This document shows positions 5,734 through 18,661 of a DNA stretch of 64,000 nt, one piece after another. The position numbers and the translations under genes were made by a program. A model generated the notes under the pieces. It made no database searches and had not been told where the DNA came from. It saw only the letters and a program-made list of their open reading frames with translations. Location of the stretch: the NCBI GenBank assembly GCA_003650545.1, contig QMQO01000002.1, positions 16,485 to 80,484 on the forward strand, written 5' to 3'. This DNA is from Candidatus Woesearchaeota archaeon (GTDB lineage Archaea; Nanobdellota; Nanobdellia; Woesearchaeales; B72-G16). Numbering within the stretch: the stretch's first letter is position 1; every line of letters starts with the position of its first letter.

Positions 5734-6561
5734 CTATAACAAATCAAAAGGACTTTTGACCTTCAACAGTGCTAAGGAAGCAGTATGCAGATAAACCTTT
5801 GTGCTTTTTAGAGTAGTATGCCCAAGAAGAGATTGTGCAGTAAGTAAGTCATAACCATTTTCAATCAAATGCGTAGCAAACGAATGTCTAAGTGTGTGCG
5901 GATGTATATTCTTCTTGATATTAGCTTTTCTTGTAGCTTTTCTGATAATTTCTTGGACAGTTCTTTGACAAATATGTGTTCTTTTATTTCCTTCAAACAA
6001 CCAATCGTCATGATTAAGTTTATTATCTTCAATGTATTTGAAAATTTCTTGTTTCAATTTATCTGCTATGATAAATGGTCTATCTTTATTTCCTTTACCA
6101 TTTCTTACCCAGCCAAGGTTTTGGTTTAATTCAATGTCTTTAACTTTTAAATGAACAAGTTCACTTAGCCTAAGACCAGCAGAATACATTAATTTTAACA
6201 TTAGTTTATGTTTAACATTACTAACAACATTAAAGATTTTTAGGATTTCATTCTTAGTGAGGACTATAGGAAGAGCTTTAGGTCTTTTTGAATATTTCAG
6301 TTTTAGATTTATTCTTTTCTTCAATACTTCAATAACCAAAAATTTGATCGCGCTAAGATAAACATTAATAGTGCTGCCTGTTGCATTTGTATCAACAAAT
6401 TTGTTCATAAACTCTTTTATAGCTTTCTTGGTCAATCTTGCTGGTTCTATCTTGCAATAATCCAAAAACCGTCTAACACAGTAAAGATATGTCTTTGTGG
6501 TTCTTGGGCTATATTTTCTGCGAAGCAGCTCTTTTTTCATTTCGTATATGGGGTCTATCAT
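5734..6561 (-). CDS. tyrosine recombinase / integrase (XerA/XerCD-like)
   Basis: C-terminal HTLRHSFATHLIENGYDLLTAQSLLGHTTLKSTKVYLH gives the R..H..R..Y catalytic signature. Length 275 aa. Confidence 0.8.
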   Translation of the reverse strand: MIDPIYEMKKELLRRKYSPRTTKTYLYCVRRFLDYCKIEPARLTKKAIKEFMNKFVDTNATGSTINVYLSAIKFLVIEVLKKRINLKLKYSKRPKALPIVLTKNEILKIFNVVSNVKHKLMLKLMYSAGLRLSELVHLKVKDIELNQNLGWVRNGKGNKDRPFIIADKLKQEIFKYIEDNKLNHDDWLFEGNKRTHICQRTVQEIIRKATRKANIKKNIHPHTLRHSFATHLIENGYDLLTAQSLLGHTTLKSTKVYLHTASLALLKVKSPFDLL

Positions 6562-6689
6562 ATATCAATCAATGTAAACTTGCTTTATATAGTTCACGTC
6601 TAGATGTCCAGTGTCCAGTGCCAACACCTTTAAAAATATATTAAAAATATATACTTCCAGACACAGTTTATATACATTCTATAATTTAA

Positions 6690-6833
6690 GTCTATATAGA
6701 CTCGTATAGAGTTTTGCGTTTATAATTTAATGGTTTTTAGAATTTCGTATTATAATTCGTAGTCTGTATAGAATCGTGTAGAGTTTCGCTTAAGTTTTAT
6801 AATTTAATAGTTGAGTTTCGTATTATAATTTAG
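6690..6833. repeat. direct repeat, 2 x about 72 bp (tctatatagactcgtatagagttttgcg...tattataattcgtag)
   Basis: Two adjacent imperfect copies read directly in the intergenic region downstream of the SDR gene and upstream of the integrase. Confidence 0.7.
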
Positions 6834-6859
6834 TTTTAAGTTTTTGAATTAACAATTGC

Positions 6860-6986
6860 TAGATATTTATTATATACTTATAGACATTTATTATAATAGA
6901 TATTTATTATATACTTGTAGATATTTATTATAATAGATATTTATTATATACTTATAGACATTTATTATAATAGATATTTATTATAG
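6860..6986. repeat. tandem repeat, about 3.4 x 37 bp (tagatatttattatatacttatagacatttattataa), each unit built of two about 18-bp half-repeats
   Basis: Read directly. Nearly perfect copies with 1-2 substitutions. Confidence 0.85.
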
Positions 6987-7105
6987 TTTTTAATATTTCA
7001 TTGATACAGCCTTTAAAACCTATGAATCTCTCAAACTTCGCATATAATATGTTATGTGCAATTCGAAAACCTGCCTAGAAATTATTTCTTTTTAGGGGCG
7101 GGGCG

Positions 7106-8074: not shown

Positions 8075-8797
8075 TTATCGGTATCTAAGAAAATAGTCTA
8101 TAATCTTATTTTCCGCTTTTCTTAAGTTTTCTTGGAAAGTAGAGTAAGATCTCTTAATAGTTTTGGCAAGCCTTTGCAATGTTAATTTTCTTGGATATTT
8201 ATAGTATCCTGCCTTATACGCTATTCTTAATGCTTCTAATTGTTTTTCTGTTAAAAGAGGTGTCAATTCAAGACTTGTAACACTTCTAAGTGTTTCTTTT
8301 TTAATAGAAAATAATTCTCCATGATAATATCTTGTTGCTGCTTGAATTATCTTATTTAATTCTTTGCGGTTTAAAGAAGCAATCTCCCAATATTCCCATC
8401 CATCGCTTGCTACATGAACTGGCTTTACCCTAATATATTGAGGATTATAAAATATTCTAATTTCAGCTTTTGATTCTCTTGAAAGAGGATGCTGGACATG
8501 GACAAGAATAAAATCATGGTGTTTTTCTACAGTCTTAACTCGTTTATCTTTTTTTACTTCTTGAATAAATTTTCTTTTATTTTCTTCAGAACCAGAAATA
8601 GTTCCACCAACAAGAAGATTAATTTTTTTGTTCTTAATAAAATTCGTGTAGGGAACCGCAAAAAACTCTATTCTAAATTTTTTACATAAAGGACTATAAA
8701 TATCTTCATCATCTTTTAATTTAAATTTAGCAACCCACATAATCCGATAATTGTCGGTTAAGTATATAAATATTACGCCCCGCCCTTTATTGATCAT
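8075..8797 (-). CDS. HTH_10 (Bat/bacterio-opsin-activator-type) transcriptional regulator
   Basis: C-terminal LTEKQLEALRIAYKAGYYKYPRKLTLQRLAKTIKRSYSTFQENLRKAE helix-turn-helix. TATA-like atttatatac and a GC-rich 11-mer lie just upstream. Confidence 0.55.
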   Translation of the reverse strand: MINKGRGVIFIYLTDNYRIMWVAKFKLKDDEDIYSPLCKKFRIEFFAVPYTNFIKNKKINLLVGGTISGSEENKRKFIQEVKKDKRVKTVEKHHDFILVHVQHPLSRESKAEIRIFYNPQYIRVKPVHVASDGWEYWEIASLNRKELNKIIQAATRYYHGELFSIKKETLRSVTSLELTPLLTEKQLEALRIAYKAGYYKYPRKLTLQRLAKTIKRSYSTFQENLRKAENKIIDYFLRYR

Positions 8798-8839: not shown

Positions 8840-8975
8840 CTGCCTACGGCAGAACCGTTGCACTATCCCTTGGTCTTTTCTTCGAAAAGACGCACATAAC
8901 ACGGCTTATGCGGTTCACTCACCTTGCAGGTTCGTTCACCCAAATTTCCCTTCGGGAAACTTCGCATAAGCCGAT
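8840..8975. repeat. structured repeat element, copy 1
   Basis: Enclosing stem cggcttatgcgg / cgcataagccg, internal tttccc-ttcg-ggaaa hairpin, linkers ccaaat and cttcg, 3-prime atatgtta. An upstream hairpin tctgcctacggcaga is shared with copy 4. The region to 9250 also holds a second degenerate copy. Confidence 0.6.
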
Positions 8976-9249
8976 ATGTTAGCCAAAATTTTCTTACTGC
9001 CTAGAAGGTGCATACGCTTACGCTATTTCCGAAAATCATTCTGATAGGTGCCTTCGTTAAATCGATTAAAACAAAAACGGTTTTTCAATTGCTTCGCAAC
9101 TAAACCTAACATTGATTTAACGACTTCATTTCATTCCATCCAAATTTTTACTTACTTTATAGACGAGAGAGGGGGCTTAGTTCTTCGGACAGATAGACTT
9201 TTATTGCGTAAAAGAAGATTTTAAGGAAGAGAAAAAACTACATAAGGAT

Positions 9250-10167
9250 TTAACTCAATTGTTTTTGTATGCCCAGTTGACTAGCATTCTCAATAATAAC
9301 TTTAACTACTTGTTTTATACCACTAATGTACTTATCAAAATCTAATATTCCTTCCTTTGCGATGTCTTTTACTTTATCCCTAAAACTTTCTTCATTCAGT
9401 CCCGATTGATATAGCTCTTTATATTGTTTGTATACATAACCAATCGGTAATTTAATGTTTTTTCCAAAATCAATGATAATATTGTAAAACGTTGCAACTA
9501 TCCCAATATATGGTACTAAAACTGTTAATTTCATATCCCTAATTAATGTGCGGTAAGTTTCCTTAAAAACATCACTTAGTAATCTATTCAATATTTTGTT
9601 TCTGTTTCCTTTTCCAATTTCTCTCTCAAGTTTTGAGATATATTTATTATCTAAAGTGATGATATCTTTTTCTTTCCTTAAATAACCAAAATCAATCAAA
9701 AATTTGATATACCTTATTTGCTTCTTGTCAAAAGACTTAGATAATGAATCTGCATGATGATCTTTCCTATAAAATGCATCTAGAACTATTCTAAGCGGAG
9801 TTAAAGCCTGATGAATTCCAGGTATTCTCACGATTTGGCTGGAAAGTAATCTTATTATTATTCTCTCTCTTAATTTATGTAATTCTTTATATTTTTCTAG
9901 CGCATTATATACGATTTCCTTTGAGTCGGAATAATTCATTAAACCGCCTTTGTTATCTAGTTTAATAAGACCAACATTTCTTAATTTGATAAAATAAACA
10001 AATTCAGTGTTTAATTCTTGATCAAAAATCCTTTTTGGAACTAAGAAGTCTAGATATATTTCTATCTCGTTCTTCAATTTGGTTACATCTTTGTTTAGAC
10101 TGATGCCATTCCAATATTTCTTTACGACTATTTCTCTTGCCTTTTTTAGTATTAATTCTTGTTCCAT
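9250..10167 (-). CDS. hypothetical protein, last gene of the Type III R-M operon
   Basis: Start is 1-2 nt from the stop of the upstream gene. No recognisable motifs. Confidence 0.5.
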   Translation of the reverse strand: MEQELILKKAREIVVKKYWNGISLNKDVTKLKNEIEIYLDFLVPKRIFDQELNTEFVYFIKLRNVGLIKLDNKGGLMNYSDSKEIVYNALEKYKELHKLRERIIIRLLSSQIVRIPGIHQALTPLRIVLDAFYRKDHHADSLSKSFDKKQIRYIKFLIDFGYLRKEKDIITLDNKYISKLEREIGKGNRNKILNRLLSDVFKETYRTLIRDMKLTVLVPYIGIVATFYNIIIDFGKNIKLPIGYVYKQYKELYQSGLNEESFRDKVKDIAKEGILDFDKYISGIKQVVKVIIENASQLGIQKQLS

Positions 10168-10168
10168 T

Positions 10169-10849
10169 TTAAGTTAACCATTGATTTAGAGATTTTTTCT
10201 CACTTTTTTCTATAGGTTCAAACCAATAAACCCTATTTAAAAATGTACTTGCAAACCTACTTAGAACATGATGGGGAGTTTTAACTCTTATATTTTTCAA
10301 ATTCAGCACCTCTTTTTGATGATTATATACTAGATCTGGATCATAGATATAAAAATGTTCCGAATCAAAACCATGTATTACCACCGCATGAAGATAATCA
10401 GGATCCTCGCCTCTTACTTCAATTTTGTGAGGGTTAATTACTATACTATTATTAATATATTTTGGATTTATTAGTAAAATTGGGTAAACCCCACTTTCAA
10501 TCATAAATTTGAGATCATCCAACGAAAAATCAACTTTAAAACGTAAGACAATATTAGCTGTTTTTAAATTTTGATTAAGTTTCAGATGAAATTTATCTAA
10601 TTCAAACACACCATGATACATTTCTTTAAGCAAACGTAAATCTCTCCCGCTTAACTTAGCCATTCTTTTTGCGACACTGTTTGGGTTATAACCCACCCAA
10701 TTTTTTATTTTTCTATAATTAATGTGTTTTAGATTTACTCTCTTATCTTTTTTAAATTGATTTAATATAATTGTGTATAATACACAAGGTAAGCATTGTT
10801 CGTCAGTCTGTTTCCGTGGCTTACTTATTTCCAAAACTTTTTTTTCCAT
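10169..10849 (-). CDS. hypothetical protein; Cys...His-Val-Val...Asp-Pro pattern reminiscent of papain-like (C39-type) peptidases
   Basis: QCLPC near the N-terminus, then HAVVIHGFDSEHFYIYDPDL. This is a pattern resemblance only. Translationally coupled to res (TAA-n-ATG). Confidence 0.35.
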   Translation of the reverse strand: MEKKVLEISKPRKQTDEQCLPCVLYTIILNQFKKDKRVNLKHINYRKIKNWVGYNPNSVAKRMAKLSGRDLRLLKEMYHGVFELDKFHLKLNQNLKTANIVLRFKVDFSLDDLKFMIESGVYPILLINPKYINNSIVINPHKIEVRGEDPDYLHAVVIHGFDSEHFYIYDPDLVYNHQKEVLNLKNIRVKTPHHVLSRFASTFLNRVYWFEPIEKSEKKSLNQWLT

Positions 10850-10850
10850 C

Positions 10851-13445
10851 TTAATCTAATCTTAATTTTTCATTGAACACATTAATAAAATCAGCTTTCA
10901 TACCTTCATTATAGAATGGCATACCTATAAGTTTATAACTTTCATTTTCTGCTAAAATCTGTAATTGACAATTACCTTCAATCTCTTTCAAAAATTCTTC
11001 TTTCCATTCGTCTGTTTTTAACAAGTGAGTTCCCTTCGGTTCAATAAATAATTGATATTGAATTAGTTTTTGTTTCCCTTTTTCTTTCAGGAATAAAACA
11101 AAATCCGGCTCTGTCGGCCTTCCGTCTGAGAATCTGTATAGCTTGAATAAATTGGCGTTCCTAACAAGATAAATCTCCGAATATTTTTTGCTTAATTTAT
11201 CCATCACTCCATGCAAAAACTGAATAAAGTGCTTTTCTTCGGATGTTCCGTAATTTTCGTTATAAACATACCATTTCTTATCAGATAAATTTAATCTTAG
11301 ATTCTCTTTTGTTGTTTCACTCATTGCGATACCGAATTCTTGGTCTGAATAATCACCTACATTAATGTTTAATGTCTTATCTTTTACAACATCTTTAATT
11401 CTGTGCTGAACAAATAATTTTGTTCCTTTATAATCTGTATAACCAGCTCTTATTTGTGATTCTAATTGTTTGAGGATGTTTAAACATACTTCAAGTTTAT
11501 CATCAGGGCTTAAATTGTCCAGTCTTGTTTTTGAGCTTCTTATATCTACTTTTATTTGTTTTAATGATTCAATGAATTCATTAATTGAGTTTAACTTTGG
11601 GAAATACTTTTTAAGATTGTCAAATTTATAAAAGTCAAGTTTTGAGAGTGCTTTTCTTAGTACAGCTTCATTAAAACTCTTTAATTCAAATGGTTTAGTT
11701 ATTCTATCTTCTTCTGCTTTTATTTCATCTACAAAAATAGTTCTGTCTTGTGTAAAACCACTTCTTAAATTAAATGGACCGAAATTTTTTGAAACATCAA
11801 TATCGCTTATATCTTTTATTCTTGACCTGTCAGCTTCAACTCTTTGGTTAATGAAAATAAAACCTTTTTTCCAGAAGTCAGTTTTTTTAATATCTTCTTT
11901 AACTTTGAGATGAATTATTTTTGGTTCTTGCGGCGGCATTATTCCAGTGTCCCTTAGAGCAGTTTTTAATTCCTGAATATATCTTGGATTATGTGTGCTA
12001 TGATAATACAACTCTTCAATAATCTTCAAATCATTTTCCAAATCCTGATCAAATTTTCTTCTGAATTTATCTTGTTCATCATTTAGTTTAAATGGAAAAT
12101 ATCTTGCTCCTCTTCCTATCAGCTGGGCTTCAGCTATTGTTGTTTTTCCCGGCCTGTTTCCTTTGCTGTCTCTTGTATCGTATAATCTAACAATATCAAA
12201 TAAGTTTAGAACATCCCAACCTTCATTTAGCATATCAACAGCAAAAATAGCTCTTATCTCATTGTTTTTATCTTCAAGAGAATTTAGTTTTAATTGTTTT
12301 TCCTCATCGATATTATTTGAATCAAGGAGCATACATTTCTCTTCTGAAAAATCTTCTTTTAATTCTGTAACTAAGTTATCAAATGATATTTTTTCTTTCT
12401 CAAAATATTCAAATGCTTTCTGTAAAACACTTCCATTTGCTTGTGATTTTATTCTTTGAATATCTCTTATAGTTAAATTTCGTATTTTTTCAAGAAATTC
12501 CTCATAATTTTTTTCAGATTCTTTTATTGTTTTTGATTTAAACAAAATTACCGGTTTTAAATGGACTTTATTTTTTTCTGCTATTTTCCTTCTGTATTGG
12601 CTTAAAATCATTGCTTGAAGCATTCTGTCAAGATTATCCAAATCTGCTTGTAAAACTTTTACTTCTTTTGAATATCCATCTTGTCTAAATTCTTTTAATG
12701 TGTATTCAAAAATAATCTTATTTTGATATTTCTCATAAATAGCAGGATTATCCAAATCAACGGTTGCAGTGTATTCCAGCATTATGTTTTCTGTATTTGA
12801 GTTAAAAATATTGTTTACTGTATGCTCCCATGTGGTTTTGGCTATCGTTTCCTCTTTTCCTAACTTATTTTTTGTCCATGCGTTTATGTGATGAGCTTCA
12901 TCTGAGATTATGACTATTTTTTTGTCTTTAAAATCTTCATAAGTTAAACTATTCTCTTTTGGCATATTCATATTAGAATGAAGCCCCTGAATTGTCGTGA
13001 AAAGAATATTTATGTCATGATTATTTGATGTTTCAAAATTATTAACTTCGTTTATTTTTACTTCCTTATCCTCAAACTTGATTTTTTCATTAAAGAGATA
13101 TTTTGATGAATTAGGATTAAGAAAATTATCTTTTGTTTTTTCTATGATGTTAGTGCTGTTTACGAAAAACAAGAAGTTTCTGTATCCTTTATTGTAAAGA
13201 TAGAGTATATTTGCGGCCATTAAAAGAGTTTTTCCTGAACCTGTTGCCATGTGAAACAAAAGCTGAGAAGGTTTTATTCTTTGAGGATAATTTTCAAGAT
13301 AATCAATAAAACGAGCTATTGCTTCTTTTTGGTATTCTCTTAATTCAAAAGCAGGATTTAAATTATGGATTATAAACTTCGGGATTTCCTTGTTTAATCT
13401 TCCAAGTTTTGAGAGTGTATCATAATCCTGCCTTAGAGTAGTCAT
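10851..13445 (-). CDS. res: Type III restriction enzyme Res subunit (SF2 helicase + C-terminal PD-(D/E)XK nuclease)
   Basis: Motif I MATGSGKTLLMAA, motif II IISDEAHH, motif VI QLIGRGARY. C-terminal FIEPKGTHL (ExK nuclease motif). Length 864 aa. Confidence 0.8.
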   Translation of the reverse strand: MTTLRQDYDTLSKLGRLNKEIPKFIIHNLNPAFELREYQKEAIARFIDYLENYPQRIKPSQLLFHMATGSGKTLLMAANILYLYNKGYRNFLFFVNSTNIIEKTKDNFLNPNSSKYLFNEKIKFEDKEVKINEVNNFETSNNHDINILFTTIQGLHSNMNMPKENSLTYEDFKDKKIVIISDEAHHINAWTKNKLGKEETIAKTTWEHTVNNIFNSNTENIMLEYTATVDLDNPAIYEKYQNKIIFEYTLKEFRQDGYSKEVKVLQADLDNLDRMLQAMILSQYRRKIAEKNKVHLKPVILFKSKTIKESEKNYEEFLEKIRNLTIRDIQRIKSQANGSVLQKAFEYFEKEKISFDNLVTELKEDFSEEKCMLLDSNNIDEEKQLKLNSLEDKNNEIRAIFAVDMLNEGWDVLNLFDIVRLYDTRDSKGNRPGKTTIAEAQLIGRGARYFPFKLNDEQDKFRRKFDQDLENDLKIIEELYYHSTHNPRYIQELKTALRDTGIMPPQEPKIIHLKVKEDIKKTDFWKKGFIFINQRVEADRSRIKDISDIDVSKNFGPFNLRSGFTQDRTIFVDEIKAEEDRITKPFELKSFNEAVLRKALSKLDFYKFDNLKKYFPKLNSINEFIESLKQIKVDIRSSKTRLDNLSPDDKLEVCLNILKQLESQIRAGYTDYKGTKLFVQHRIKDVVKDKTLNINVGDYSDQEFGIAMSETTKENLRLNLSDKKWYVYNENYGTSEEKHFIQFLHGVMDKLSKKYSEIYLVRNANLFKLYRFSDGRPTEPDFVLFLKEKGKQKLIQYQLFIEPKGTHLLKTDEWKEEFLKEIEGNCQLQILAENESYKLIGMPFYNEGMKADFINVFNEKLRLD

Positions 13446-14069
13446 TTACAACCCTCCTGCAATTGCTTGAGCAATTAAGTTCGTTAAAACATTTAATGGG
13501 ACTTGTCTCAAAAAATCTCTTCCTTTTTGTTTAAGTTCATTCAATAAAGCATTTATTTTAGATTTCTGGATGTTGTCTTTTTTTGTCTCTTCTTCTATCT
13601 CTTTTATTATCCTTTTTATTTGCTCTTTATTTTGAAAATTATTTTTATCTAAAATATTATGAACATCACTAAATGAGGTTATGGTGATATTCATTTGATT
13701 AAGATTTTGATTTAAGTTGGTGTTTGTTATATTTATGTTAGGAACAGGAGAGTCTATATTTACTTCTTTATTTTTATCAAATTTTCCTAATTCATAATTA
13801 TCCTTTATTATTTGAATACCACCTAAACAAGATTCTATATCTCTGTCATAAAAAGCAAATTCTTCAGCAGGTGCGAAATAAAATGGATAAAAAATACCTT
13901 GAAAAAGTTTTTTTATTTCTTGTTCTGAATAAAGTTCTACAATTATACTTTTAATTTTTCCTCGTATCGCATACATTAAATCTTGATTTTCTTTTGAAGG
14001 TCTATTTTTTATTTCATTAAGTTGATTTTCATAATCTTCAAGTTTGGATATTACTTTTTGAATATCCAT
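13446..14069 (-). CDS. hypothetical Asn/Lys-rich coiled-coil protein inserted between mod and res
   Basis: Start refined to MDIQKVISKL with a ggaggt SD 8 nt upstream. The mod stop TAA is 1 nt before this ATG. The gene abuts the res start. Confidence 0.5.
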   Translation of the reverse strand: MDIQKVISKLEDYENQLNEIKNRPSKENQDLMYAIRGKIKSIIVELYSEQEIKKLFQGIFYPFYFAPAEEFAFYDRDIESCLGGIQIIKDNYELGKFDKNKEVNIDSPVPNINITNTNLNQNLNQMNITITSFSDVHNILDKNNFQNKEQIKRIIKEIEEETKKDNIQKSKINALLNELKQKGRDFLRQVPLNVLTNLIAQAIAGGL

Positions 14070-14070
14070 T

Positions 14071-16047
14071 TTATAAACCTCCATAAAATTTTTTATTAAG
14101 CTCAACATCCTCTTTGCTTATTTTATATTGCTTGTCTTCTATTTCGCTGTAATTGGTATATAGGTTATTTGCATCAAGACATTCAATAAGAAGTTTCTTC
14201 TGTTCTTCTGCTGATAATTTCTTAAAGTCTTCAATATTTTCGTCAAAAAGTTTAGGATCTACACGATAACTCAAAAATGCGTGTTGCTTCATATCTTCCC
14301 AGATTTTAAGAAGCTCTTTTGTATCTTTTGCTTTCTTAATCTTCCGGACAAATCCTTCATTAAGTTCTTTTAGCTCCATATAAACAAAATCTCCACCGCC
14401 CTTCCAACCAACAGCTTTTGAGATGCCTGTTTGATCTCCATTGATTACATTTTTCAATCTCACAACAGCACTATTCTCTCCATAATCCAATTGCTCAACA
14501 CCAATATATTGTCTGCCCATTTTGTGAGCTACTGCACAAGTTGTTCCGGATCCTAAATGGTAATCTAAAACTATATCTCCTTCTTTTGTAGCCATGTCTA
14601 ATATCTTTTTCATTAATTTTTCTGGTTTTTTACCCGCTTTTAGTTCAACATTCCCTTCTTTAGCTATTCCTTGATGTAAATTTTCTACCCAGAGATTGTC
14701 ATTTTTAATTAATTTCAATACACTTTTTCCTTCATTACTTTTAATTGCACTATCCCTTAACCATACAATTAATGAACCATCTAAGAAATAATACCTATAA
14801 ATTTGTCCAGCAGATTTACCTTTTGTAGGAATGTATTCAATAGAGTAAAGACCTCTTTTTGGAATATGAGGCATTATTCTCTGCATTAAACCCCCTTGTG
14901 GATTAGTAGTTCTAAAAATCTTCTCAAAATACTTATAATAATTTTCATCAGTTCTATCTTTTGTTAGTAATGTTTCAACATTAAAATTTTCATGCTTGAA
15001 AACTTTTATTTTACCAACATTTCCACCGTTTATATCTTTAACATAGTTCTCCTTACCAAAATCTGTTAAAATTTTATTATACACCCTTTTGAAATTATCT
15101 CCTAGTTCTCCTTCAGCAAACGGTTTATAATTTTCAATTTTACTGCTATCTTTAGCATAAATTAGAATATACTCACAAATATCAAATAAGAAACTTTCTT
15201 GCCCTACACCCCCTCCTGCTTTTGCTTTTAGGGTTATCATCGTCAAAAAGTTCTCTCTACCAAATATCTCATCCATTAGCACTTTTAGATATGCTTGCTC
15301 TCTGTTATCAATCTGAACAAAAATAACCCCATCATCCCTTAACAAGTCTCTCGCAACTTCTAACCTGTTCTTCATAAAAGTTAGCCAAGTGGAATGATTA
15401 AAATTATCATTATACTTAAACTCATCATTTCCTGTATTATACGGTGGATCAATATAAATCAGCTTTACTTTTCCGGCAAATCTTTTCTTTAAAGAATGTA
15501 AAACCAAAAGATTATTTCCTTTTATGATTAAGTTGTCTGTTGGTTTGATTTCTTTGACTTTATGCTCTCCTTTGGCGTCAATTCTTTTAAAGTTTGTAAA
15601 TACTTTTGGGTCTAATAATCTATCAATTTCATCCGGAGCAAGAATTTCATTGTGAAAAATCTCTTTTCTTTTTTCGTCAGATTTCTCTTGTCCACCTTCT
15701 AATATACAATCTTTGTATGGCCAAGCTAAAACAACTTCTTTACTTTTTGAGATATATCGGTCATCATCCGTAATTAAACCAATTTTGTTTTTAAAAGCAG
15801 TGTAAGAATCAGGCAGGAACTCTTTATTATCAACAAATTTCATGAATTTTTCTTTGTCAAAAATTAATGTCCCTTCAACTTCAGTGAAAAAATGCTCCTT
15901 AATTTTTTTGTTGGTCAGAAGAAGCTTGATCAAATCTTTATCTAATTTTAATGCCAACTCTACAATCCTATTTTTTAACAATTCCCCATCAGATACCAAT
16001 CTTTCATCTTTTTTTAAAAGTGATTTTAATTCATCTAAAAGTGTCAT
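14071..16047 (-). CDS. mod: Type III R-M Mod subunit (beta-class N6-adenine/N4-cytosine DNA methyltransferase)
   Basis: Motif IV LIYIDPPYNTGND precedes motif I DYHLGSGTTCAVAHKMGRQYIGVE. Length 658 aa. Confidence 0.8.
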   Translation of the reverse strand: MTLLDELKSLLKKDERLVSDGELLKNRIVELALKLDKDLIKLLLTNKKIKEHFFTEVEGTLIFDKEKFMKFVDNKEFLPDSYTAFKNKIGLITDDDRYISKSKEVVLAWPYKDCILEGGQEKSDEKRKEIFHNEILAPDEIDRLLDPKVFTNFKRIDAKGEHKVKEIKPTDNLIIKGNNLLVLHSLKKRFAGKVKLIYIDPPYNTGNDEFKYNDNFNHSTWLTFMKNRLEVARDLLRDDGVIFVQIDNREQAYLKVLMDEIFGRENFLTMITLKAKAGGGVGQESFLFDICEYILIYAKDSSKIENYKPFAEGELGDNFKRVYNKILTDFGKENYVKDINGGNVGKIKVFKHENFNVETLLTKDRTDENYYKYFEKIFRTTNPQGGLMQRIMPHIPKRGLYSIEYIPTKGKSAGQIYRYYFLDGSLIVWLRDSAIKSNEGKSVLKLIKNDNLWVENLHQGIAKEGNVELKAGKKPEKLMKKILDMATKEGDIVLDYHLGSGTTCAVAHKMGRQYIGVEQLDYGENSAVVRLKNVINGDQTGISKAVGWKGGGDFVYMELKELNEGFVRKIKKAKDTKELLKIWEDMKQHAFLSYRVDPKLFDENIEDFKKLSAEEQKKLLIECLDANNLYTNYSEIEDKQYKISKEDVELNKKFYGGL

Positions 16048-16187
16048 TTTTCATCCTCCTCTTTAAGCTGTTCTTCCATCATTATTTCAAACTGTCTTGA
16101 TATTAATAAACCCTTTTTCTTGCAGAAATTTCTATATTTATCATATAATTCTGAATTAACCCTTAAAGTGATATTTTTTGATTCCAT
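16044..16187 (-). CDS. small ribbon-helix-helix (CopG-like) protein, putative controller of the R-M operon; not in supplied ORF track
   Basis: Minus-strand translation MESKNITLRVNSELYDKYRNFCKKKGLLISRQFEIMMEEQLKEEDEK (47 aa). Its stop overlaps the mod start codon (ATGA). The beta-strand ITLRV plus two helices fit an RHH fold. Confidence 0.5.
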   Translation of the reverse strand: MESKNITLRVNSELYDKYRNFCKKKGLLISRQFEIMMEEQLKEEDEK

Positions 16188-16205
16188 TTTGCACCCCTTT
16201 TTATT

Positions 16206-16231
16206 ACAAATATATTCATTTGTATATAAAT
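16206..16231. promoter_or_regulatory. near-palindrome acaaatatattcatttgt overlapping a TATA-like box upstream of the RHH gene (candidate operator/promoter)
   Basis: Outer 6+6 bp inverted repeat ACAAAT...ATTTGT read directly. TATA tatataaata lies about 35-44 nt upstream of the minus-strand ATG. Confidence 0.35.
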
Positions 16232-16469
16232 ATTTCTATCCTAATGTTCTTTTTCAGAAAAAGAACCAAAAACAGCCCCCTCTCTCGTCTTTCAGACATG
16301 CTCAAAAATGGAACATTTTTGGCATCCTAAAAATCTTTGATTTTTATGATATTGCCTGCTACGCAGTTATTGATATCAAAGTAAGTAAAAACTACGGCAC
16401 CTATCTGATTTTCGGCAGTAAGAAAACTCAAAAATTTAATGTTCCTTGCGGAACTTAAATTTTTGGATT

Positions 16470-16640
16470 TGCTAACGCAAATCTCGGCTAACACGCATTA
16501 AGCGGGAAATTAGCCTAACCACACCCGCCCCTAATTTCCCCAAATTTTGAGTCCAGCTCTGTTCCGCTCAGGTTTTGTGGGTTGCCTCAAAACCTTCGCT
16601 CCACGAGGGACTCAAAACTTCGCTTAATGCGATATGTTAA
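16470..16640. repeat. structured repeat element, copy 2
   Basis: Enclosing stem acgcattaagcg / cgcttaatgcg. Hairpin A gggaaattag...ctaatttccc. Linker ccaaat. Hairpin B gagtcc...gggactc. Linker cttcg. 3-prime atatgtta. Confidence 0.65.
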
Positions 16641-16682
16641 TTGCAATTCAGAAATCAGCCTAGAAAGTTTAGGGGGCAAAAT

Positions 16683-17195
16683 TTAAAAGTCTCTTGTAAT
16701 CTTATGTTCTTTAGAGAATTTTATTTCCAATTGGTCATAGAAGTCATTACAAGATTTTATTTTTTCTTCATCTGTCCTTTGAATTCCTTTCCTCTTTAAT
16801 TCAAGATATTCTTTCAGCCATTTCTCCCAAGCATTTTTAGCTTCAGGATTCTCTTTAAAGTATCTTCTTAAAGTTTGCTTAATCTCTTTAGCAACTCCCT
16901 GTGGGTCAAAAAGTATTTTTTCCTCTAAATATGGATATGACAAGAACGGATACTTTTTGATACGATTAAGCAATTTCTTTTTTGGCCAGAATTCAAAGTC
17001 CACTTTAATTCCATAACGATATTCATGAGTATCTTTATATCGTCCACCATCATAAATAATCTCAATATCAACATCTGAATCTTTATGAGCTGTTCCTCTC
17101 GCTATACTTCCAAAAAGTAAGATACTCACTACTTTTGGATCTTTCTTCTTCTCTTCTATGACCTCTTTTATTATTTTTCTATGAATACTTAGCAT
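16683..17195 (-). CDS. minimal nucleotidyltransferase (Pol-beta superfamily)
   Basis: LFGSIARGTAHKDSDVDIEII gives the GS-x9-DxD NTase signature. Flanked by inverted copies of ttagggggcaaaat. Confidence 0.7.
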   Translation of the reverse strand: MLSIHRKIIKEVIEEKKKDPKVVSILLFGSIARGTAHKDSDVDIEIIYDGGRYKDTHEYRYGIKVDFEFWPKKKLLNRIKKYPFLSYPYLEEKILFDPQGVAKEIKQTLRRYFKENPEAKNAWEKWLKEYLELKRKGIQRTDEEKIKSCNDFYDQLEIKFSKEHKITRDF

Positions 17196-17294: not shown

Positions 17295-17440
17295 ACTTCG
17301 CTACGCTTCGTGCCACGCTGCGCTCTCGCCTTCGGCTCGGGGCAATTAACAGGAATTTAACGGAAAAATGCTCAGCTCGCATTTTTCCCAAATCGTTCGC
17401 TACGCTCACGACTTCGTTAAATTCCAATGTTATGCTCAAT
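17295..17440. repeat. structured repeat element, copy 3
   Basis: Enclosing stem ggaatttaacgg / cgttaaattcc. Hairpin A ggaaaaatgc-tcagctc-gcatttttcc. Linker cccaaat. 3-prime aatgttatgctcaat. Upstream about 55 bp is alignable with copy 4. Confidence 0.65.
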
Positions 17441-18514: not shown

Positions 18515-18661
18515 CTCCGCTTCGCTCCGAGCCACGCTACGCGCTCTCGCCTACAGCTCGGGTCGGCTAACAGGCATTATCCGAGAAATCCCTCGGCTCG
18601 GGATTTCTCCAAATTTTTGCTAACGCAAAAACTTCGGATAATGCCATATGTTATGCTCAAT
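18515..18661. repeat. structured repeat element, copy 4
   Basis: Enclosing stem ggcattatccgag / ctcggataatgcc. Hairpin A gagaaatccc-tcggctc-gggatttctc. Linker ccaaat. Hairpin B ttttgc-taac-gcaaaa. Linker cttcg. 3-prime atatgttatgctcaat. Confidence 0.65.

Follow-up and report, generated by a model that had tools for sequence, protein, structure and literature searches.

The window analysed here, a 64,000-nt stretch of DNA from a Candidatus Woesearchaeota archaeon taken over its whole length, carries on its minus strand, from 16187 to 9250, six co-oriented and tightly packed ORFs, all of them where a preliminary description of the sequence had placed them. From the 5' end, and on the minus strand as are all features below, they encode a 47-aa ribbon-helix-helix (RHH) protein with weak Arc-like/RelB matches (16044-16187); Mod, a 658-aa Type III N6-adenine DNA methyltransferase with the beta-class motif order (14071-16047); orfX, a 207-aa helical protein that forms the cargo of the mod/res slot (13446-14069); Res, with 864 aa, an SF2 helicase/ATPase and a C-terminal PD-(D/E)xK nuclease (10851-13445); orfY, a 226-aa candidate papain-fold (C39-like) cysteine peptidase (10169-10849); and orfZ, with 305 aa, an alpha/beta N-terminus, a long helix and two winged-helix domains (9250-10167). 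The coupled character of the block, also proposed earlier, holds when the junctions are read from the sequence: the RHH stop lies within the mod start (ATGA overlap), mod and orfX meet at TAA-a-ATG, orfX and res at TAAATG, res and orfY at TAA-g-ATG, and a 1-nt gap separates orfY from orfZ. The junctions flanking orfX carry SD sequences, and its start is the ATG 1 base past the mod stop, an alternative upstream ATG giving 220 aa. The G+C content of the block is 27-31%, against 33-45% in the rest of the window. Purifying selection on orfX, orfY and orfZ (dN/dS 0.08-0.21) means that these genes are not degenerate pseudogenes, as they might have proved to be.

The preliminary description was right to see in Mod and Res the genuine subunits of a Type III R-M system. 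Mod matches Pfam N6_N4_Mtase (1.7e-46) and TypeIII_RM_meth (6.8e-27), PADLOC MTase_III (2.6e-198) and, among PDB sequences, Mod 6k0w (1.2e-33) and EcoP15I Mod 4zcf (1.8e-28); the DPPY motif reported for it is there and comes first, while the accompanying FxGxG is not, the AdoMet motif that follows reading HLGSG. Res matches Pfam ResIII (2.5e-32) and PADLOC REase_III (2.8e-138) at residues 18-860, its full length, and has the motifs GSGKT, DEAHH, QLIGRGAR and a C-terminal PD...EPK. The pair thus resembles known systems (EcoP15I/EcoP1I; HI_1054-type Res) in a Mod with DPPY, TRD, AdoMet motif and TypeIII_RM_meth N-terminal domain, in a Res with SF2 helicase motifs and a C-terminal PD-(D/E)xK, in the position of mod upstream of res in one transcription unit, and in the match of both proteins to full-length PADLOC Type III models. 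Unlike the canonical two-gene systems, the locus adds the 47-aa RHH gene, two post-res genes and orfX, which keeps mod and res from being adjacent, as had been noted; orfX, orfY and orfZ are missing from its nearest relatives. Type III Mod enzymes methylate a single strand of a short asymmetric site, and in Mod2Res the Res ATPase links two inversely oriented unmodified sites, with cleavage nearby.

A search for Res relatives in species-representative genomes returned 233, of which 80, 49-85% identical, were kept. The RHH-mod-res core is also found in other archaea with mod abutting res directly: the mod/res gap is 0 nt at loci L019, L021 and L023 and 1 nt at L017, a Pacearchaeota locus which holds the closest Res relative (85% identical) and has neither orfX nor orfY/Z, nor any gene coupled 3' of res. 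In 28 of 72 relatives more than 300 nt are inserted at the mod/res junction, and this cargo is unrelated to orfX, encoding RhuM, AAA_13, Bro-N, MNT+HepT, AAA_14, Fic, SLFN_AlbA_2, AAA_15/21, PIN_3 and unknowns. An ORF coupled 3' of res was seen in 15 of 70 (about 13, as two look spurious), with products that include Cas4/DUF2779, Piwi and RhuM. The two slots have cargo families in common. The relatives' cargo consists for the most part of toxin, abortive-infection or guardian-type genes. Judging from these gene neighbourhoods, the mod/res junction and, less often, the post-res position serve as sites for exchangeable cargo in this Type III family.

The small RHH gene that was said to overlap the mod start is present, and homologues with 67-86% identity keep its position directly 5' of mod in L010, L017 and L023. 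Its profile matches are weak (PHROG 0.002; TIGR02384, 0.066), and its dN/dS is 0.11. A role as controller is plausible, and the gene is probably a transcriptional autoregulator and a portable 5' leader gene. The candidate promoter/operator (16205-16232) consists of a TATA-like TTTATATA (16232-16225) abutted by the palindrome TACAAAT-N6-ATTTGTA (16224-16205). When the 70-nt AT-rich leader was shuffled 5000 times, a palindrome arm of equal length arose in 271 cases; the palindrome alone is therefore not significant, and it is not conserved in the homologous leaders of L010, L017 and L023. The comparison with C-protein R-M systems made in the preliminary description is therefore reduced to an analogy: a small DNA-binding-type 5' gene overlaps the next gene and a palindrome lies beside the promoter, but C proteins belong to Type II systems and have an Xre-type HTH rather than an RHH, and in L025 a member of this RHH family precedes an SLFN_AlbA_2 gene that is unrelated to R-M.

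The two genes downstream of res form a pair with a distribution of its own. The papain/C39-like signature attributed to orfY, with the order Cys...H-x-V-V...D-P (here Cys...HAVV...DP), was confirmed: C19, H154 and D170, together with Q18, H159 and G160, are invariant across five homologues with identities down to 32%. All four family members examined gave sub-threshold matches to DUF3335 (best 5.6e-5) and Peptidase_C39_2 (best 9.4e-4); the AF2 model has a pLDDT of 39 and is unusable for the fold. We regard orfY (dN/dS 0.087), from its invariant residues and these sub-threshold matches, as a candidate Cys-His-Asp papain-fold peptidase. It is similar to these clan CA families in its Cys at the N-terminus of a predicted helix and in a His-Asp spacing of 16 residues, and differs from them in scoring under the Pfam gathering thresholds, in lacking an ABC-transporter fusion or a double-glycine leader context, and in having a cytoplasmic winged-helix protein as its partner. 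That partner, orfZ, is a tandem winged-helix protein and is obligate.

The preliminary description had proposed orfY and orfZ as possible components of the R-M system that might always accompany mod and res, an idea that the search for homologues did not support. The pair occurs at 32-43% identity in three other lineages (L001/L002, L005 and L016), where neither mod nor res adjoins it, although these loci were read from short contigs of 1.4-3.2 kb, or 15.8 kb for L016, where an N6_N4 methyltransferase gene lies on the opposite strand two genes from orfZ (~0.9 kb). Conversely, neither gene was found in any of 85 loci carrying Res relatives. In L006-L008 a conserved upstream flank is followed by ~60 nt of promoter-like sequence, a frame-broken res remnant of ~140 nt, derived from the 3' end of the gene, and an intact orfY-orfZ, which is under strong purifying selection in comparison with the window pair (dN/dS 0.08-0.09). 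The 1-nt res-orfY junction and the res remnant in this R-M-less relative indicate that the adjacency of R-M and orfY-orfZ is ancestral to both lineages and not a very recent accident. On this comparative evidence, orfY-orfZ appears to be a separate conserved two-gene module for which the R-M system is only a neighbour, and it most likely belongs among independent cassettes of the defence or addiction type.

A narrower version, in which orfY-orfZ is a toxin-antitoxin-like (TA) addiction module that stabilises the cassette and is linked to restriction purely by position, seems unlikely to us. It draws on the two-gene unit with its 1-nt gap, on a small gene found 5' of the pair in L005 (weak RHH_1 match) and in L016 (AbrB-like, by eye only), on surroundings rich in defence and TA genes (MNT adjoins in the window; MNT, AAA_14 and DUF3800 are present in L016), and on the prominence of TA modules, the most frequent class among the cassettes of archaeal integrons (PMC9668308). 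Against this, the two proteins, with 226 and 305 aa, exceed the size usual in classical type II TA systems, and no known toxin or antitoxin family was matched in the libraries scanned.

The case of orfX is different. The protein has a helical N-terminal module, an Asn-rich linker and a helical C-terminal module with an amphipathic tail, and matched no family in any profile library scanned. It is rare, with two strong 50%-identity clusters among 1.84 billion representatives, and each of its homologues (P0009-P0012, 49-76% identity) is flanked by mod and res. The expectation that orfX would always co-occur with mod/res was thus borne out in five of five independent contexts (the window, L010, L011/L012, L013 and L097), and no strong similarity was found outside this slot. 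This constancy, the SD-bearing and translationally coupled junctions, as tight as those of a subunit would be, and a dN/dS of 0.13-0.21 could be taken to mean that a small sub-class of Type III enzymes has orfX as a third, integral subunit, for example a Mod2Res assembly or bridging factor. We find that rather improbable. In a quick NJ tree of Res built without bootstrap, orfX-positive and orfX-negative systems are intermingled, and every Res from an orfX-positive system has as its sister or a near neighbour one from a system without orfX, such as L017 for the window (85%) and L018 for L097 (82%); orfX is not present in L017-L025. Mod and Res fit full-length PADLOC models with no domain missing, the slot in relatives is filled by unrelated toxin/Abi-type genes, and the divergences of orfX and Res are decoupled: in L097 Res is 81% identical and orfX 49%, and in the same genome pairs the dS of orfX (0.73-0.79) is below that of Res (1.6-1.8), which suggests a separate and more recent exchange of orfX.

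Because it is absent from the closest Res relatives and occupies a cargo hotspot, we see orfX as an optional embedded passenger; being rare, selected, bound to mod/res, patchy and housed in a slot shared with unrelated cargo, it has the attributes of an R-M-embedded accessory gene. As such genes are already known, what appears to be new is this particular gene. Its all-helical build, Asn-rich linker, amphipathic C-terminal tail and lack of enzymatic motifs argue against a catalytic subunit. Its location makes a second-line accessory role, tied to the R-M system, the most likely one for orfX, which could act as a backup for that system, a sensor of its failure or a modulator of the complex. Accessory genes inside R-M operons have been described before (PMC3710099, PMC12707154), and a HEPN survey ties AAA_13, an ABC-ATPase family, to PrrC/RloC. 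Like these 'guardian' genes (PrrC in EcoprrI; RloC and restriction-linked ORFs; HEPN, RhuM, Fic), orfX is patchy, exchangeable and intra-operonic, and the same slot in Type III relatives holds AAA_13, RhuM, Fic and MNT+HepT. Unlike them, orfX shows no recognisable effector domain, be it ABC-ATPase, HEPN, Fic or another, and it sits in a Type III operon, exactly at the mod/res junction, whereas the classical cases are in Type I loci.

The distribution of the genes also largely refutes the view that the three extra genes are joint parts of a BREX- or DISARM-like elaboration, with RHH, Mod, orfX, Res, orfY and orfZ as one obligate six-component defence system, which we hold to be very improbable. 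Co-orientation with 0-1-nt gaps or overlaps, purifying selection on all six genes and their position as a single unit between two attC-like repeats would agree with it, but the six-gene order was found nowhere else, relatives with orfX lack orfY-orfZ, those with orfY-orfZ are without mod, orfX and an intact res, neither orfX nor orfY-orfZ accompanies the closest Res relative, and PADLOC detects no BREX or DISARM component. That faulty assembly or binning produced this arrangement, conceivable for a MAG, is hardly credible given that the reading frames abut precisely, that two contigs, of which the longest has 110,590 nt, encode products identical to orfY and orfZ and a contig of 91,699 nt encodes one identical to orfX, and that the independent assemblies L006, L007 and L008 join the res 3' remnant to orfY at the same junction.

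We therefore consider it probable that the block combines three layers, an RHH-Mod-Res core, the orfX passenger and the orfY-orfZ module, which would be co-transcribed here. In the first layer, Mod would recognise a short asymmetric site and methylate it on one strand, and Mod2Res would cut near two inverted unmodified sites, while RHH would, most likely, repress its own promoter and so set the level of expression. In the second, orfX would be translated between Mod and Res by way of its SD-bearing TAA/ATG junctions. In the third, orfY-orfZ would fill the post-res slot and be expressed through read-through from res, and the putative peptidase orfY might act on, or be controlled by, its DNA-binding partner orfZ.

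As a whole, the 7.6-kb unit may be a horizontally acquired cassette, which fits its low G+C content and its position between attC-like structured repeats within a cassette array. The repeats were located with the covariance model R1: copy A (16483-16641; 79 bits, E 8e-18) bounds the block at its upstream edge and copy B (8891-8983; 89.7 bits, E 1.7e-20) at its downstream edge. The outer stem of the repeat shows 100% pairing, and 6 of its pairs are compensatory. Archaeal integron arrays and CALINs, whose cassettes are enriched in TA modules and methylation/restriction genes (Ghaly et al. 2022, PMC9668308), are similar in their tandem, mostly single, co-oriented genes between structured repeats of ~95-160 nt, in the covarying stems and ...AAC / GTT... 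ends seen in the window repeats, in the TA- and R-M-type cassette content and in the presence of a tyrosine recombinase nearby. The array differs from them in that the window recombinase scores as XerA, with no IntI bearing the integron-specific extra domain, in its R boxes, which agree with 6 of 7 consensus positions, in a repeat that folds as a three-way junction, and in that a six-gene unit of this size far exceeds a typical cassette.

Just 5' of the RHH promoter lies a leader element of ~56 nt (16244-16299) with T-runs and a perfect 9-bp hairpin (GTTCTTTTTCTGAAAAAGAAC). It is 90-93% identical in L006-L008, where it stands 5' of orfY, before the promoter-like AT-rich stretch and the res remnant, and L003 has a copy 3' of orfZ.

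The six genes lie co-oriented on the minus strand in the order RHH (ribbon-helix-helix; 16187..16044, 47 aa), mod (16047..14071, 658 aa), orfX (14069..13446, 207 aa), res (13445..10851, 864 aa), orfY (10849..10169, 226 aa) and orfZ (10167..9250, 305 aa), and both the ORF listing and a direct reading of the strand bear out the tightly joined block of the preliminary description. RHH and mod overlap at an ATGA, the following junctions read TAA-a-ATG (mod/orfX), TAAATG (orfX/res) and TAA-g-ATG (res/orfY), the gap between orfY and orfZ is 1 nt, and the starts of orfX and res are each preceded by a GGAGG-like sequence. The G+C content of the block is 27-31%, against 33-45% elsewhere in the window save for its lowest value, 26% at 6001-7000. 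The identification of Mod and Res as a Type III pair also stands. Mod matches Pfam N6_N4_Mtase (1.7e-46) and TypeIII_RM_meth (6.8e-27), PADLOC MTase_III (2.6e-198) and, in a search of PDB sequences, EcoP15I Mod (1.8e-28); it carries the N-terminal domain of Type III Mod proteins, and its motif IV (DPPY, in IDPPYNTG) precedes HLGSGTT, the order of beta-class N6-adenine methyltransferases. Res matches ResIII (2.5e-32) and, across residues 18-860, PADLOC REase_III (2.8e-138), with no match at E<=1e-3 among PDB sequences, and its translation contains GSGKT, DEAHH, QLIGRGAR and EPD...EPK, that is, an SF2 helicase/ATPase and a C-terminal PD-(D/E)xK. Type III systems hemi-methylate an asymmetric site, and to cleave they need ATP and a pair of unmodified sites in inverse orientation. 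The locus departs from the two-gene Type III layout in that mod and res are not adjacent, orfX (624 nt) lying in between.

A likeness to BREX or DISARM had been suggested for this arrangement. A PADLOC scan of the six proteins gave significant matches to MTase_III and REase_III only, and PglZ, BrxC, BrxL, DrmA, DrmB and DrmC were all lacking; nor do the comparisons described here support a single elaborated multi-component system, orfX being optional and orfY-orfZ being kept in relatives that lack the R-M system. We conclude that a canonical Type III R-M system with a leader RHH gene here carries within it a new and rare cargo gene, orfX, and adjoins an independent pair, orfY-orfZ, of a candidate peptidase and a winged-helix protein; the functions ascribed to orfX and to the pair are putative.

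Searches of Pfam, NCBIfam, PHROGs, PADLOC and PDB sequences found neither a family match for orfX nor any recognisable effector domain in it (ABC-ATPase+HEPN, Fic, RhuM and similar). A word-indexed search returned three relatives at 70-76% identity, and with HMMER, run exhaustively over 1.84 billion representatives, the strong matches came to only two 50%-identity clusters. The order mod-orfX-res is found in every readable context, namely the window and four other lineages (loci L010, L011/L012, L013 and L097), and this, together with a dN/dS of 0.13-0.21, argues that orfX is a real, selected and R-M-linked gene. It was absent from all 80 loci that we kept and fetched from at least 233 Res relatives (49-85% Res identity; archaea and many bacterial phyla), and is optional despite that link. 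In the Pacearchaeota locus L017, which has the closest Res relative (85%), the order is RHH-mod-res with a mod/res gap of 1 nt, and a quick NJ tree of Res mixes orfX-positive and orfX-negative sequences. At L097 the identity to the window is 81% for Res and 49% for orfX, and within the same genome pairs the dS of orfX is about half that of Res, which indicates that the two have been exchanged separately.

The position of orfX turns out to be a recurrent site of insertion. Among 72 relatives with a readable mod, sampled from species-representative genomes, mod is directly adjacent to res in 44, and 28 (~39%) carry an insert of more than 300 nt, as a rule tightly joined to its neighbours. These inserts are mutually unrelated and include RhuM, AAA_13, Bro-N, MNT+HepT pairs, AAA_14, Fic, SLFN_AlbA_2, AAA_15/21, PIN_3 and many unknowns; at least ten insert families in loci L017-L096 had no Pfam match (e.g., L037, L046, L069, L073/L078 and L083). 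An ORF coupled directly after res was found in 15 of 70 relatives, of which two look spurious, leaving about 13, and the products include a Cas4/DUF2779 nuclease, a Piwi-domain protein and RhuM. The same cargo families can occupy either slot, as in two cross-slot pairs of 53% identity each (L024 8548-9036 and L039 5477-5989; L093 8591-9631 and L036 4958-5998); L063 (8604-10670) and L023 (8600-10045) are further loci with cross-slot or post-res cargo. R-M operons are known to harbour embedded genes of accessory, toxin or guardian type (PMC3710099; PMC12707154), and a survey of HEPN proteins has linked AAA_13, an ABC-ATPase family, to PrrC/RloC. The cargo described here is likewise embedded, with the difference that it sits at the precise mod/res junction of Type III systems. 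Like PrrC/Rlo-type genes, orfX lies inside an R-M operon, is patchy among close relatives and occupies a slot common to other cargo, and given this correspondence the most fitting reading is that it adds a new, rare gene to the R-M-embedded cargo class. Res proteins 75-85% identical to that of the window occur in MAGs of Pacearchaeota, Methanophagales, Scalindua (Planctomycetota), Atribacteria, Gemmatimonadales and Caldisericales, a range of archaea and bacteria which implies recent cross-domain horizontal transfer of the Type III system.

Two other origins for orfX can be set aside. A domain split off from Mod or Res is rejected, both proteins spanning full-length PADLOC profiles, and a HEPN protein, an idea prompted by a weak match to the mod/res insert of L042, which has Rx4H, is rejected because orfX lacks the Rx4-6H motif. 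The orfX sequence has two helical modules, one N- and one C-terminal, joined by an Asn-rich linker, and the C-terminal one ends in an amphipathic tail. Its weak matches (E 4e-8 to 7e-4) have only the N- or the C-terminal module in common with it, and one of them, P0017 (L098), lies in a non-R-M context and may be no true homologue. The two modules seem to occur apart in other small proteins (P0013, P0014, P0016, P0018, P0023): the C-module (N-rich ... SF..IY ... NKEEI..I.E.E.E..KE.I.KSKI) comes behind N-terminal regions judged by eye to resemble winged helices and has a hydrophobic tail end, and the N-module is paired with a C-terminal transmembrane helix. As a lead only, this may suggest that each orfX module also exists on its own, joined to segments that are winged-helix-like (judged by eye) or transmembrane.

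The orfY-orfZ pair has a different history. An orfY homologue (32-43% identity) stands directly ahead of the orfZ homologues P0005-P0007 (37-42%) and of the one in metagenome locus L016, with a gap of 1-2 nt, the exception being the short contig L004, which has just 138 nt upstream; it is the pair that is conserved as a unit. In its distant contexts (L001/L002, L005, L016) mod and res do not adjoin it. At L001/L002 it is followed by a membrane protein that weakly matches TrbL_3 and T4SS_pilin; at L005 it is preceded by a 56-aa gene whose match to RHH_1 is weak; and at L016 it is preceded by a 57-aa gene, AbrB-like by eye and without a family match, in surroundings that include MNT, AAA_14/DUF4143, DUF3800 and, on the opposite strand, an N6_N4 methyltransferase. 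Both genes were also absent from all 85 Res-relative loci. The expectation that the accessory genes would always accompany mod and res thus holds for orfX wherever its context is readable and fails for orfY-orfZ.

The closest relatives of the pair (L003, L006-L009; 83-86% identity) are the most informative. They lack RHH, mod, orfX and the greater part of res, and show in succession the conserved flank, ~60 nt of promoter-like sequence, a ~140-nt remnant of the res 3' end, whose frame is broken by 17-nt and 1-nt deletions, and an intact orfY-orfZ; the sequence upstream of the RHH promoter in the window (16428-16356, 16299-16244) is 90-93% conserved in them. The adjacency of R-M system and orfY-orfZ is accordingly ancestral for the lineages of the window and of these relatives. 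Against the closest relative, dN/dS is 0.087 for orfY and 0.080 for orfZ, i.e., strong purifying selection, and as with orfX this shows that the accessory genes are not degenerate. Since the pair is still under purifying selection where the R-M genes have been lost, it does not depend on the R-M system.

Matches below threshold to the C39-like DUF3335 and to Peptidase_C39_2 were found in all four orfY-family members scanned (23.2 bits against a DUF3335 cut-off of 25, Peptidase_C39_2 being also below its cut-off). Residues Q18, C19, H154, H159, G160 and D170 of orfY are invariant in 5/5 sequences, with the Cys opening a predicted helix and the His and Asp lying on consecutive strands at a spacing of 16 residues, a layout compatible with a papain-fold peptidase. 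No PDB sequence relative of orfY was found, and an AF2 model from a two-sequence alignment (pLDDT 39) is too poor to judge the fold. For orfX, orfY and orfZ alike, PHROGs, NCBIfam and PADLOC gave no meaningful matches, profiles against PDB sequences gave nothing credible, and scans of viral contigs found none of the three, so that a proviral origin is unsupported. A putative protease with a DNA-binding partner, sometimes behind a possible repressor gene, would resemble addiction or defence modules in architecture, by analogy only.

The RHH protein, with weak Arc/RelB-like matches, had been proposed as a C-protein-like controller acting at a palindrome beside a TATA-like box. C proteins, unlike this one, are of the Xre HTH type and act at conserved C-box palindromes upstream of their own gene. 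An equally good palindrome arises in 5.4% of shuffles (p about 0.054) and that of the window is not conserved in the leaders of L010, L017 and L023, and we reject the C-box as unsupported. RHH homologues (67-86% identity) do lie directly upstream of mod in these three loci, and the dN/dS of the gene is 0.11. At L010 it abuts an upstream DUF5655 gene, leaving no separate promoter region and hence no conserved promoter or operator. At L025 a homologue (13213-13380, 75% identical) overlaps the start of an SLFN_AlbA_2 gene (13377-13727) and not mod, which is how a portable leader module would behave. The RHH gene therefore appears to be a portable leader or regulator and no Type III-specific controller.

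The non-coding flanks contain structured repeats of ~95-160 nt with conserved ends (TAACA...TGTTA), a variable branched centre, an 11-bp stem that covaries between copies and RNAfold z-scores of -3.3 to -7.4. A covariance model seeded with three window copies and one from a relative has an outer stem of 16 bp, 100% paired and with 6 compensatory pairs, whose score was reached by 0 of 500 shuffles. It matches four window copies, all on the minus strand: 18562-18655, 17341-17434 (outside the seed, E 1e-11), 16483-16641 (copy A) and 8891-8983 (copy B). These delimit mostly single-gene units, with a 2-hydroxyacid dehydrogenase and an MNT nucleotidyltransferase, and the six-gene block. The MNT-type gene (16683-17195, minus) has weak MntA and HalB matches and no adjacent HEPN partner; an HTH_10 (bacterio-opsin-activator-type) regulator (8075-8797, minus) has its predicted start ~95 nt downstream of copy B. 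Further copies flank the R-M units of L017 (5095-5193, 5743-5830 and 6543-6635, the first ~230 nt after res), L025 (809-924, 8738-8830, 9646-9743, 10904-11001) and L018 (2674-2757). By inspection, the repeat ends (...AAC / GTT...) match RYYYAAC/GTTRRRY R boxes at 6/7 positions each; Rfam gave no match for the flanking repeats, and no tRNA that could serve as an integration site lies nearby. A 275-aa tyrosine recombinase (5734-6561, minus) is co-directional with the array and 2.3 kb from its last copy. The array is not accompanied by an IntI with the integron-specific additional domain: the recombinase scores as an archaeal XerA (NF040815, 222.5 bits, cut-off 220) and falls short as an integron integrase (TIGR02249, 203.8 bits, cut-off 265). 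The G+C minimum of the window adjoins the recombinase region. Judged by structure and ends, the repeats form an array similar to the archaeal integron cassette arrays (CALINs) of Ghaly et al. (PMC9668308), whose annotated cassettes most often carry TA and methylation/restriction genes, and it is a supported lead that an attC-like cassette array of CALIN type encloses the whole unit.

Taken jointly, these observations could be read as a Type III family that serves as a chassis, with slots at mod/res and after res that here both hold undescribed second-line defence effectors, the unit being mobilised as a giant cassette; we consider this combined reading rather unlikely as a whole. Under it, the helical orfX protein with its amphipathic tail would sense the R-M complex or act as its backup, the orfY-orfZ module, a cysteine peptidase with a tandem winged-helix partner, would trigger growth arrest or DNA-directed defence, and the giant cassette would belong to an integron-like array of archaea. 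Our findings at this locus do not overturn current views. They make a seemingly exotic six-gene defence operon interpretable as a standard Type III R-M system with exchangeable passengers, and point to the exact mod/res junction as a cargo hotspot in a widespread, cross-domain family. The genes found there overlap with the toxins and guardians familiar from Type I loci, and scanning this slot offers a cheap harvest of new candidate defence or abortive-infection genes. Two very rare, well-conserved and unannotated DPANN families, orfX and orfY-orfZ, now have a testable context, and the presence of R-M units of at least three archaeal lineages in covarying attC-like repeat arrays lends support to the idea of archaeal integron-like platforms moving whole defence operons.

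Two further features lie between the attC-like copies. A conserved leader element of ~56 nt (GTCCGTAGGAC...GGGGGCTGTTTTTGGTTCTTTTTCTGAAAAAGAAC; 16244-16299, minus), with two T5 runs and a perfect 9-bp hairpin, stands ahead of the RHH promoter in the window and, in the R-M-less relative L006 (291-346), upstream of orfY and ahead of the res remnant; at L003 (1452-1508) it follows orfZ, ahead of a different gene with a weak HSDR_N match. Possible readings of the element are a terminator/promoter boundary and a recombination joint. Imperfect inverted repeats (8989-9177 and 16274-16426) bracket the six genes inside both attC-like copies, with 100% matches of 17 nt (9161-9177 / 16274-16290) and 14 nt (9145-9158 / 16378-16391); each arm has an insertion of ~88 nt at a different place, and L006-L008 show 90% conservation of the right arm.
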